Virus record (IMG/VR): IMGVR_UViG_2879742664_000003
From: a virus
Taxonomy: Duplodnaviria > Heunggongvirae > Uroviricota > Caudoviricetes
Reading direction: 5' to 3' (one strand)
DNA length: 48,597 bases
Part shown: positions 45,201 to 48,200 of the stretch, piece by piece
How positions within the stretch are numbered: the first letter of the stretch is position 1
Layout of the letters: every line of letters begins with the position of its first letter
Made by a program: the position numbers

Positions 45201-48200
45201 ACAGCCGTTGGCGAAGGTGAGTTACTCATCGGCTGGAGTGGTACAAGCGGTGCTCATGCTCCGGCATTTATTCGTTCACGACGGGATACGACCGACGCAA
45301 ACTGGTCGCCGTGGGCGCAGCTTTACACCTCGGCTCATCCTCCTGCAGAGTTTTATCCAGTCGGTGCACCAATCCCGTGGCCATCAGATACCGTTCCGTC
45401 TGGTTATGCCCTGATGCAGGGGCAGACTTTTGACAAATCTGCTTACCCGAAACTTGCAGCCGCTTATCCGTCAGGCGTGATCCCTGATATGCGTGGCTGG
45501 ACGATTAAGGGCAAGCCCGCCAGTGATCGAGCCGTATTGTCTCAGGAACAGGACGGCATTAAATCACACACCCACAGCGCCAGCGTATCCAGTACGGATT
45601 TGGGGACGAAAACCACATCGTCGTTTGATTACGGCACTAAATCCACGAATAACACTGGTGCGCATACCCATAGTGTTAGCGGTACGGCTGCTTCAGCCGG
45701 TGCACATACCCATTCGATGACATTTGTTTCAGGTGGTTCCAGTGGTGCTCCGGGAAGTGGATCACCTGATTATTCTAAATACAGTGTTAACACTTCTTCT
45801 GCAGGCGCTCATACGCACTCTGTATCGGGTACTGCTGCAAGCGCAGGTGCACACGCACATACTGTCGGTATTGGTGCTCATACGCACTCCGTTGCGATTG
45901 GTTCACATGGACATACCATCACCGTTAACGCTGCTGGTAACGCGGAAAACACCGTCAAAAACATCGCATTTAACTATATTGTGAGGCTTGCATAATGGCA
46001 TTCAGAATGAGTGAACAACCACGGACCATAAAAATTTATAATCTGCTGGCCGGAACTAATGAATTTATTGGTGAAGGTGATGCATATATTCCGCCTCATA
46101 CAGGTCTGCCAGCAAACAGTACCGATATTGCACCGCCAGATATTCCGGCAGGCTTCGTGGCTGTTTTCAACAGTGATGAGGCATCGTGGCATCTCGTTGA
46201 AGACCATCGGGGTAAAACGGTTTATGACGTAGCGTCAGGGGACGCGTTATTTATTTCTGAACTCGGTCCGTTACCGGAAAATGTTACCTGGTTATCGCCG
46301 GAAGGGGAGTTTCAGAAGTGGAACGGCACAGCCTGGGTGAAAGATGCAGAAGCAGAAAAACTGTTCCGGATCCGGGAGGCGGAAGAAACAAAAAACAGCC
46401 TGATGCAGGTAGCCAGTGAGCATATTGCGCCACTTCAGGATGCTGTAGATCTGGAAATCGCAACGGAGGAAGAAACCTCATTGCTGGAAGCCTGGAAAAA
46501 ATATCGGGTGTTGCTGAACCGTGTTGATACATCAACTGCACCTGATATTGAGTGGCCTACGAACCCTGTCAGGGAGTAATCATTGGGATTATGCCGCAGC
46601 ACGTCTTAAGCAAGAACGTGCTGCGGTTGGATGCTATTTTTTCCCTGAAGCGGAAAACATTACTACAGTACCTTGAACCTTGGTTTTAACATTCTCGAAA
46701 TGCTCTGAGAGTATATGTGTTAAGCCTTCTTCGGAATCTTTTGTGTTTGAAAAGATGCCTTTCTGATTGTAAATGCGCATCAGTTTTTGACCGAAGCTAT
46801 TGTGCACAACTCCATCGCCAAGAATTGTGGCTCCGTATAGAGTTCCATCGTCAGTTAAGGCCTGCGCCGCATTGCGTATTACACAGCTTTTTGTAGATAT
46901 ATTTCCAGGCAGGCAGTGAAGAAGGTAAAACATGGAAATGGAATCAAATTGACCATGTAACGCCGCGGGATAAGGTTCAAAAACATCATGGCTAATTTTA
47001 TGTTTAATTTTTGATTCCCCAGCCCTTGTAGATGCCGCGTTCAGGCTAGCTTCGTTCAAATCCATTAAAGATATCAGACTACTCTCAGGTACGTGAGTAA
47101 GGTAAAACCCAGTTCCAACACCAATATCCAGATGGTTGTTACCTACATGTTCCAGAAAGTGTGGAAGAAGGTGTTCCTTTGTAGGACATCCCCATGCAAG
47201 CCGATTTGATACTCCCAAAACCCACCAGTCATAAAGCTTTAGGGTAAGTGGTGTGTAAATTTTAGCCCCATCATCTGTGTTTTTTTTCATTGATTTCACC
47301 GTGTTATAGTTTTATTTGTGAATTAAATCAATTATGGCGATGAATTACAAGGGGTTAAATGCTGCCGCAGCATAGCGATATTGAAATAGCCTGGTATGCT
47401 TCGATACAGCAGGAGCCGAATGGCTGGAAGACCGTCACCACACAGTTCTACATCCAGGAATTCAGTGAGTATATTGCGCCACTGCAGGATGCTGTAGATC
47501 TGGAAATCGCAACGGAGGAAGAAAGATCGTTGCTGGAGGCATGGAATAAATATCGGGTATTGTTGAATCGTGTTGATACATCAACTGCACCTGATATTGA
47601 GTGGCCTGCAAATCCTGTCAGGGAGTAATCATTGGGATTATGCCGCAGACACGTCGTATGCAGGAACGTGCTGCGGTTAGTTTGTGAGCTTTCGATAGTG
47701 GTTGTTATTTTTGCCCTTATTTGTTCCGGAGGCCATGGTTCAATGGTCCGTCTGCCCCCTGTGGTGATGTCAGCAAAATCAGCCACTGCGCGAACCACAA
47801 TAGCCCGGGAAGATGCTGAAGATCACCAGGTAAAGCTGTCAGCGCAGAAACTGGAAGAACTGCTCGCATCAATGGTTAAGGATGAGGTTGATCGCAATGA
47901 TGGGATTTATTGACGTCAGCGAGAGCAGAAGGAAGAACTGAATAACCTGAATGATTTACGCTCAATCAGAGCGATGGCGATTAGCGGCAATCACGCTCGA
48001 TAAAATTAACCCCGGTGATCATCCGGGGTTTTGCATTCATTAAAACCGCATCAACCTTTCCACCAATTGTTCTTTACGGGCAACGATCCACCCATGTTGC
48101 TCCAGATAAAATTTAAACCGTTCCAGCGTGCATACCATCGCATCGGCGGGGACTTTTTCTGTGAACTCGACCTGACCGTGTTTATCGAAGTGGATCAGTA

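Follow-up and report, generated by a model that had tools for sequence, protein, structure and literature searches.

A ybcY methyltransferase cassette between repeated tfa 3' ends in a lambda-like prophage and its probable origin by out-of-register recombination

How did a methyltransferase gene come to lie, on the opposite strand, between two directly repeated copies of the end of a tail-fiber assembly gene, and what might its product do? The question is raised by one locus of IMG/VR virus record IMGVR_UViG_2879742664_000003 (Caudoviricetes), whose whole stretch of 48,597 nucleotides we refer to as the window. Scans of its open reading frames (ORFs) against profiles show that the window is a lambda-like prophage, with a lambda-type integrase gene (355-1188) at one end and a minus-strand Rha gene at the other. 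Its intact tfa gene is followed by a hairpin, by the minus-strand gene ybcY and by a second, partial tfa copy with a hairpin of its own (Table 1). We found that this feature is already known: it is the ybcY moron cassette of Escherichia coli lambdoid prophages, equivalent to tfaD-ybcY-tfaX in the DLP12 element of E. coli K-12, and its layout is an ordinary product of lambdoid mosaicism. The reading of the cassette that we consider likely is that its repeat came from out-of-register recombination between two diverged tfa alleles and that YbcY is a methyltransferase of the small-molecule type.

The ybcY locus and its parts

Over 46141-47605 the window is 97.5% identical to K-12 DLP12, which presents the same order of a tfa piece, a hairpin, ybcY on the opposite strand, the promoter region and a second tfa piece. 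The two differ in that all three genes are pseudogenes in DLP12, where the first tfa piece is fused to a terminase fragment and the second has an internal stop and a different 3' end, whereas tfa and ybcY are intact in the window and copy 2 of the repeat retains its hairpin. A K-12-type genome has this DNA between nohD and appY-ompT-envY, in the order tfa pseudogene, frameshifted methyltransferase gene, tfa pseudogene. We take these pieces to be tfaD, ybcY and tfaX, as in the K-12 annotation. The names ybcY and tfaX are confirmed in PMC3946193, and in uropathogenic E. coli strains ompT lies 272 bp from ybcY (PMC6854850). When the cargo and promoter region (46629-47462) were used as a prevalence query against 5426 complete E. 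coli genomes, we observed the cassette at 95-100% identity in 3844 of them (about 70%), mostly as a single copy and at most as four. The full window-type arrangement occurs in 376 complete E. coli genomes. Whole YbcY is also encoded by 14 sequenced phages, including 2G7b, ev243, Kati, Turner and several PhiR isolates, and a part of it by one further short phage record. The feature is therefore not unusual, being instead a common conserved component of E. coli tfa loci that is named ybcY in K-12, between the tfaD and tfaX pieces. A first-pass annotation of this DNA had named, as grounds for refuting its reading, a common conserved tfa-locus component with a known function; the first half of this describes what we found and the second does not. 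None of the papers found to mention ybcY addresses its function.

The repeat copies extend over 46403/46414-46628 and 47452/47463-47678 (215/216 bp; repeat finder and alignment). Upon global alignment, 198 of 216 columns match (91.7%), with one 1-nt indel, located in the hairpin loop. This similarity is beyond what chance could give and bears out the direct repeats of about 210 bp and about 90% identity, made up of the tfa 3' end and its hairpin, that had been proposed. Each copy comprises the last 55 tfa codons, the stop codon and a 49-nt tail with the hairpin, and copy 1 is 99.1% identical to the left copy in K-12 DLP12. In Tfa, the N-terminal domain is variable and binds the fiber, while the C-terminal helical domain is conserved and mediates trimerization (PMC9608196, citing phage Mu work). 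Since the repeat is exactly this conserved domain plus the hairpin, it is common to many tail-fiber modules, and our data are consistent with its use as a homology patch for swapping tail-fiber modules and flanks around the cargo. We also noted that Rfam model RF02111 (IS009, a candidate E. coli small RNA) matches 46338-46536 (+) over its full length with 227.5 bits against a gathering threshold of 117, and the copy 2 region at 47382-47585 (+) with 112.5 bits, slightly under that threshold. Because the match falls within the tfa coding sequence, the model seems to capture DNA of tfa or of tfa pseudogenes and not a separate RNA gene.

Hairpin 1 folds with -28.6 kcal/mol on the plus strand (z -4.2) and -25.4 kcal/mol on the minus strand (z about -4), and is a putative shared 3' stem-loop or terminator of tfa and ybcY. 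In the stem of the lambda tfa hairpin a C:G pair of the other hairpins is replaced by A:T, a compensatory change which argues that hairpin structure is under selection. A 45-residue plus-strand ORF (46552-46689) spans hairpin 1 and the 3' end of ybcY. RefSeq labels it "hypothetical protein" and, for a K-12-type genome, "nucleocapsid protein"; the call is probably spurious.

The DNA between the copies has a G+C content of 41.6%, lower than in tfa (48%) and in the window overall (52%). Its minus-strand ORF (46634-47299) contains HLDIGVGTGFY, passes the Pfam cut-offs for Methyltransf_12, 23, 25 and 11, and matches phrog_2132 over 218 of 218 positions (E 4e-157), so that the AT-rich, opposite-strand, S-adenosylmethionine (SAM)-dependent methyltransferase gene with a DIGVGTG motif had been called correctly. 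The true start is likely the ATG at 47290 rather than the GTG at 47299, because the 218-residue homologues begin there and the PHROG profile is matched over its full 218 positions. The upstream start used by the Prokaryotic Genome Annotation Pipeline (PGAP) is ACG in the window and shifted in Citrobacter freundii; upstream starts are not conserved. The left edge of the cargo falls at 46628/46629, exactly the base of hairpin 1, which is where homology to the C. freundii (L021) and Salmonella (L024) loci starts, and junction alignment against C. freundii sets the right edge at about 47446. Since homology to methyltransferase-free, e14-like loci (L028) begins at 47350, we assign 46629-47349 to the core moron.

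Morons are extra genes between conserved phage genes, such as lom and bor in lambda and the HK97/HK022 extras (Hendrix and colleagues). Like these, ybcY is a single extra gene with its own predicted promoter, a 3' stem-loop and a lower G+C content, present or absent among collinear genomes; we found it absent from lambda and from at least 20 prophages located in ompW, and distinct in base composition. It is unlike them in running against the flanking operon and in relying on the hairpin of tfa instead of supplying a clear terminator itself.

To the right of the cargo, copy 2 forms the 3' part of a chimeric ORF. Its N-terminal 37 residues are 76% identical to an intact 80-residue ORF of C. freundii (tblastn, E 4e-15), itself a full-length member of phrog_3893 (E 8e-38). 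This implies that the N-terminus of the chimera is the 5' end of the usual divergent neighbor of the methyltransferase gene. The remainder is made up of the last 55 residues of Tfa, matching only positions 75-130 of the 131 of Caudo_TAP, and the N-terminal fiber-binding domain of a tail-fiber assembly protein is missing. The fusion junction lies within 47447-47469, where the parent sequences happen to resemble each other. Of the earlier description of this copy as a tfa-like remnant with a novel N-terminus, the remnant holds up and the novelty does not, since the N-terminus is the 5' end of a phrog_3893 gene. A partial "DinI family" gene annotated by PGAP antisense to this 5' end was considered and rejected; it gave no Pfam hit and only E 0.25 in tblastn with two DinI proteins, and the start of the phrog_3893 gene accounts for the region better. 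The right-hand copy has decayed differently from genome to genome: in W4 it has lost 7 bp, in K-12 it contains an internal stop, in 2G7b, W4 and O157 it is cut short at 47583, and in one DLP12 remnant it is missing. It is not maintained as a gene, and the 89-residue chimera is probably a pseudogene.

Table 1. Features of the ybcY locus and of the tail genes beside it, in window coordinates
Feature	Coordinates	Strand	Remarks
J	38843-42241		ORF and profile scans of the window
lom	42308-42907		ORF and profile scans of the window
stf, side tail fiber gene	42966-45995		1009 aa; directly upstream of tfa
tfa, intact tail-fiber assembly gene	45995-46579	+	194 aa; Caudo_TAP full length, E 3e-45; phrog_105, E 4e-101
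Repeat copy 1	46414-46628	+	conserved C-terminal domain of intact tfa plus 3' tail
Hairpin 1	46593-46627		between convergent tfa and ybcY, 5 nt past the ybcY stop codon
Whole cargo between repeats	46629-47446		818 bp
Core cargo (moron)	46629-47349	-	ybcY coding sequence plus 59 bp promoter region; ~41% G+C
ybcY, class I SAM-dependent methyltransferase gene	46634-47290	-	218 aa from ATG 47290 (likely start); ORF open to GTG 47299
ybcY promoter (predicted)	47303-47331	-	-35 TTGATT 47331-47326, 17-nt spacer, -10 TATAAC 47308-47303
5' fragment of phrog_3893-family small gene	47350-47469	+	first 37 codons plus 9 bp upstream
Chimeric ORF, tfaX-like, phrog_2341	47359-47628	+	89 aa; phrog_3893 N-terminus fused in frame to last ~55 tfa codons
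Repeat copy 2	47463-47678	+	3' stub of older or resident tfa allele with own hairpin
Hairpin 2	47642-47677		-24.2 kcal/mol, z -2.4
DUF4376/tail-fiber-like gene remnant	47725-48003	+	internal stop, N-terminus missing; PGAP annotation of L002

Origin of the repeat

For the origin of the repeat, we compared loci that contain parts of the arrangement. In C. freundii the methyltransferase is 90% identical to YbcY and the DNA 91.8% identical over 46622-47445 of the window, with the tfa repeat on neither side of the cargo; the order there is dinI, ybcY, the divergent phrog_3893 small gene and then a umuD-like S24 peptidase gene. E. coli e14-like prophages (L028, L029) have dinI back to back with the small gene, followed by the umuD-like S24 peptidase gene, and no methyltransferase gene. 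Phage Ayreon contains a tfa stub (from 46434), hairpin 1 and the last 36 nt of ybcY, then an internal deletion that joins 46669 to 47329, after which comes a small gene that is C. freundii-like for about 50 codons and unfused to tfa. Since Ayreon has the join of hairpin 1 to ybcY without the tfa fusion, the left join predates the right-hand fusion. Finally, in at least 20 genomes with a prophage in ompW an intact tfa runs straight into a hairpin of the hairpin 2 type and the DUF4376 remnant, with no ybcY. This implies that the DNA to the right of the fusion is a native tfa flank.

The repeat copies themselves point to two alleles. Their coding parts differ at 9.5 synonymous and 6.5 non-synonymous positions, giving a synonymous divergence (dS) of 0.30, a non-synonymous divergence (dN) of 0.05 and a dN/dS of 0.18. 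Differences that are mostly synonymous suggest that both copies descend from functional alleles, unlike one copy drifting after duplication in place. Across loci the right-hand copies are 97-99% identical to each other and 83-90% identical to left-hand copies; being orthologous across genomes and further from the left copies, they indicate that the arrangement arose once and then spread.

In the order of events that we infer from present-day arrangements, ybcY would at first have lain between dinI and the phrog_3893 small gene with its umuD-like S24 peptidase gene, much as in C. freundii. Next, dinI would have been lost and ybcY, with the small gene, attached to a lambda-type tfa hairpin at its 3' base, the stage from which Ayreon would descend. 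An out-of-register crossover within a short patch of similarity would then have connected codon ~30-37 of the small gene to codon ~140 of a second tfa allele, which kept its own hairpin and downstream DNA. The incoming phage would have given stf, tfa, hairpin 1, ybcY and the 5' end of the small gene, and the resident phage the last 55 codons of its own tfa, hairpin 2 and the downstream DNA. Copy 1 would then belong to the incoming tfa, which stayed intact, and copy 2 to the resident tfa, of which a 3' stub would be left on the far side of the cargo.

An alternative is duplication in place, in which transposition or something like it would have put the cargo into tfa and created a long target duplication, copy 2 then drifting as a pseudogene. 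We regard this as improbable. The copies are direct, in register and end at the same base past the hairpin, as it would have them, but target duplications made by transposons are all far shorter than 215 bp, neither a transposase or integrase nor terminal inverted repeats were found in the cargo, and at the right junction the sequence is fused to the interior of another gene instead of showing a clean insertion edge. The low dN/dS and the presence of hairpin 2 with its downstream DNA as the native tfa flank of ybcY-free prophages likewise speak against it.

We give little credence to the idea that the layout was selected as a unit, with YbcY acting on the fiber or Tfa, or with the chimera serving as a working second chaperone or a regulator of the Tfa trimer. 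The chimera does keep in frame all of the conserved C-terminal Tfa domain, it is an unbroken ORF in the window with a PHROG family of its own, and a promoter facing tfaX is listed for K-12 (PMC3946193); the -10 hexamer of that promoter, however, overlaps the ATG of the chimeric ORF. The chimera also lacks the fiber-binding domain and is truncated, frameshifted or stopped in K-12, W4, 2G7b and O157. For its part, ybcY is convergent to the late operon with its own predicted promoter and persists in DLP12 remnants that have no tail genes, and homologues 56-90% identical to YbcY occur without tfa in Citrobacter, Salmonella, Enterobacter, Yersinia and Aeromonas.

A programmed switch, in which the repeats would be sites of a shufflon- or invertase-like system toggling the cargo or an alternative chaperone, is so improbable as to be set aside: the Mu, P1 and e14 tail-fiber loci do have duplicated tfa/fiber 3' ends and Gin, Cin and Pin switches, and full-length relatives of the fused small gene adjoin pinE (at about 0.5 kb) and dinI in e14-like prophages, but those systems have inverted repeats, a serine invertase and two functional gene sets, whereas at the window locus the repeats are direct with one stub, neither inverted sites nor an adjacent serine invertase is found, the opposite strand holds no alternative fiber C-terminus, and the right-hand copies decay differently between genomes. 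The remark that no invertase was visible is correct for the window, where tblastn with a Gin-type query gave a best E of 0.26 and the lambda-type integrase is the only recombinase domain among the ORFs scanned, although it is beside the point given that the repeats are direct.

Recombination between diverged tfa alleles fits the traces of exchange around the cargo, whose horizontal acquisition and placement by recombination at the tail-fiber locus, the latter as had been suggested, are upheld by its absence from lambda and the ompW prophages and by its occurrence behind different tail-fiber modules, in at least four left contexts and several right ones. We located left breakpoints within copy 1 at 46434, 46460 and 46463 and another at 46141, and right ends of shared sequence at 47583 and 47605. 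The K-12 right-hand copy is a mosaic of copy-2-like and copy-1/lambda-like sequence. In O157, four chromosomal-type genes are inserted between tfa and hairpin 1, so that hairpin 1 stays with ybcY and tfa lies 2.8 kb away. We found no unambiguous natural deletion of the cargo through the repeats among the loci compared; occasional deletion via repeats of 215 bp and 92% identity is expected. NMBU-W13E19 was considered as such a deletion, and this was dropped after four more ybcY-free loci had been sampled, because the ybcY-free loci are separate tfa alleles with private differences and similar mosaic patterns.

The hairpin recurs outside the cassette. In lambda, the minus-strand cargo gene ea47 follows right after the tfa hairpin, as ybcY does in the window, and is succeeded by a b-region hairpin whose 35-nt stem-loop is identical to that of hairpin 2. 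This hairpin recurs with some 20-50 nt of downstream sequence at lambda 24161-24219 (L009 5284-5342), between ea47 and ea31, and about 20 nt of its downstream sequence are shared with the window. The lambda case differs in that the cargo is unrelated and the hairpin alone is repeated, with no tfa coding stub. A related hairpin also stands between pinE and dinI in e14-like prophages (L028 3581-3629). The shared hairpin behaves as a boundary element between gene modules, and the cargo junctions at hairpin bases (ybcY in the window, ea47 in lambda) could stem either from retention of the hairpin by selection or from breakage at it.

The small gene that contributed to the fusion has features of its own. 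The spacer between dinI and the phrog_3893 gene contains LexA boxes such as TACTGGATGGATATACAGTA (L028 3936-4000 and L029 3936-4000), and because these boxes are good the family is probably SOS-regulated. We observed relatives, about 70% identical, upstream of umuD/humD on plasmids.

The methyltransferase and its likely role

YbcY, of the WP_000240999 type among NCBI class I SAM-dependent methyltransferases, is 99% identical to a protein cluster of 6589 members (P0002), and its gene is 100% identical at the nucleotide level to that of L002, a locus 99.4% identical to the window in which the element sits in ompW and adjoins trpA. Across six E. coli contexts ybcY is 98.6-100% identical, with few and mostly synonymous changes, and is intact in five of the six. 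The family has more than 1600 members, and chromosomal or island relatives 56-68% identical to YbcY occur in Enterobacter, Citrobacter, Salmonella, Klebsiella, Yersinia, Erwinia, Aeromonas and Shewanella. In the neighborhoods inspected (Salmonella, Enterobacter, Yersinia, Aeromonas and Citrobacter), we found no conserved partner gene beyond prophage or SOS-island debris, the homologues always standing alone, so the gene neighborhood gives no functional clue.

Upstream of ybcY, a Shine-Dalgarno-like GGTGA (47300-47296) lies 5 nt from the ATG at 47290, behind a predicted promoter (Table 1). For K-12, divergent constitutive sigma-70 (RpoD) promoters of ybcY and tfaX are listed, with H-NS binding between them, and the hexamers of the window match those listed for K-12 ybcY (PMC3946193). 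They are conserved at every locus examined, C. freundii included. No LexA box was found in the cassette, so SOS control of ybcY is unsupported. Right after the start codon is an A8 run (47280-47290, minus-strand ATGAAAAAAAAC). In K-12, the null allele lacks 2 nt, namely the G of the ATG and one A of this run, and several other genomes match the cargo query with 833 instead of 834 bases; the site could be a slippage-prone off switch for ybcY. The gene would probably be expressed from the prophage, as a lysogenic-conversion gene.

The profile and structure search that the first-pass annotation had called for returned Pfam class I domains, phrog_2132 and small-molecule enzymes as fold neighbors. 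An AlphaFold model built with 34 homologues has a predicted local distance difference test (pLDDT) score of 91, and the best Foldseek E-value was to PDB 8ys9 (8.8e-12; template modeling score 0.62-0.68). YbcY is a class I (Rossmann-fold) SAM-dependent methyltransferase, sharing its fold and length (~200-220 residues) with PmtA, JHAMT, UbiG, NodS and DhpI. Sequence profile searches against PDB gave only distant hits, to JHAMT (the best) and UbiG, and NCBIfam gave only sub-threshold matches, to CpaM, RquA and PmtA. The match to the PmtA equivalog NF045882, at 15.7 bits, falls far below the cut-off of 390, and the structural likeness to PmtA is no better than that to many methyltransferases.

With moderate confidence, from the model and from the lack of DNA methyltransferase motifs, of a defense-system match and of any NCBIfam match near its cut-off, we assign YbcY to small-molecule or lipid methylation in the lysogen; our best guess at a substrate is a metabolite or a lipid head group. 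A more specific proposal is that YbcY is a lysogenic-conversion enzyme that methylates an envelope lipid or small metabolite, for instance by PmtA-like N-methylation of phosphatidylethanolamine, with a selectable benefit to the lysogen. We offer this as an unlikely candidate.

We think it very unlikely that YbcY methylates DNA, whether to protect the phage genome or as an orphan epigenetic enzyme. DNA methyltransferases are common in phages, and the SAM motif I of YbcY is common to all class I enzymes, but YbcY contains neither [DNS]PP[YFW] nor a PCQ/PC motif, matches none of the N6_N4, Dam and C5 Pfam families, and has no DNA methyltransferase among the structural matches listed. At 218 residues it has no target-recognition domain, and the window encodes a separate N6_N4 DNA methylase. 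A search for anti-phage defense genes (PADLOC) gave nothing meaningful, only mad2 at 12.8 bits (E 0.0096). Because YbcY has no DNA methyltransferase motifs and its fold neighbors are small-molecule enzymes, a comparison of methylomes with and without ybcY would probably be uninformative.

Several points weigh against the combined reading of the cassette as recombination of two tfa alleles around a small-molecule methyltransferase gene. The order of events rests on a handful of present-day loci instead of a rooted phylogeny, and C. freundii could have received the cargo secondarily instead of preserving a layout like that of the source. Among the alleles sampled, no intact tfa has the diagnostic bases of copy 2 at 46421-46477, so that the resident parent is a proposed one. 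With 92-94% identity to either copy, the ybcY-free prophages are alleles apart and show an empty slot rather than proven deletion products. On the ybcY strand hairpin 1 has no canonical U-tract, which leaves it a putative terminator. The support for the promoter is in vitro binding of RNA polymerase to K-12 DNA, where ybcY is a pseudogene (PMC3946193), and any expression, enzyme activity or phenotype of ybcY is putative.

Neighboring genes and meaning of the finding

The tfa gene of the window is 91.5% identical to lambda tfa in DNA. Downstream of the tfa stub, residues 34-93 of an ORF at 47632-47913 match phrog_7703 and phrog_1141; the DUF4376 remnant in this region (Table 1) is a further relic. 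The integrase ORF (minus strand, 277 residues) matches positions 2-73 of a 172-position catalytic domain profile and may be truncated or frameshifted, in which case the prophage would be defective for excision. A 330-residue N6_N4 DNA methylase is encoded at 14841-15833 (+; Pfam E 7e-32); it is the real DNA methyltransferase of the phage and the relevant gene for methylome comparisons. We also observed a 228-residue homologue of QueH (epoxyqueuosine reductase) at 10491-11177 (+; E 1e-65), unusual in a lambdoid early region, and a 355-residue ORF at 22051-23118 (-), amid plus-strand genes, that matches PF14350 ("Beta protein") over its full length (E 8e-56) and may be another cargo gene.

As a genome feature the layout itself matters little, being an annotated locus and textbook mosaicism. 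Its value is as a worked example of how cargo gains flanking repeats without dedicated mobility machinery, with junctions placed within about 20 bp and with an intermediate (Ayreon) and the empty slot still in existence alongside the window arrangement. YbcY is among the most widespread prophage-borne enzymes of E. coli that have no known substrate, and K-12 is a natural knockout. If YbcY does methylate an envelope lipid or metabolite to the benefit of its host, lysogens would gain a change in surface chemistry, in stress tolerance or in susceptibility to phages or antimicrobial peptides. Such a benefit would explain why ybcY stays nearly invariant in some 70% of E. coli genomes amid reshuffled surroundings, and the K-12 null allele would explain why its function escaped notice.

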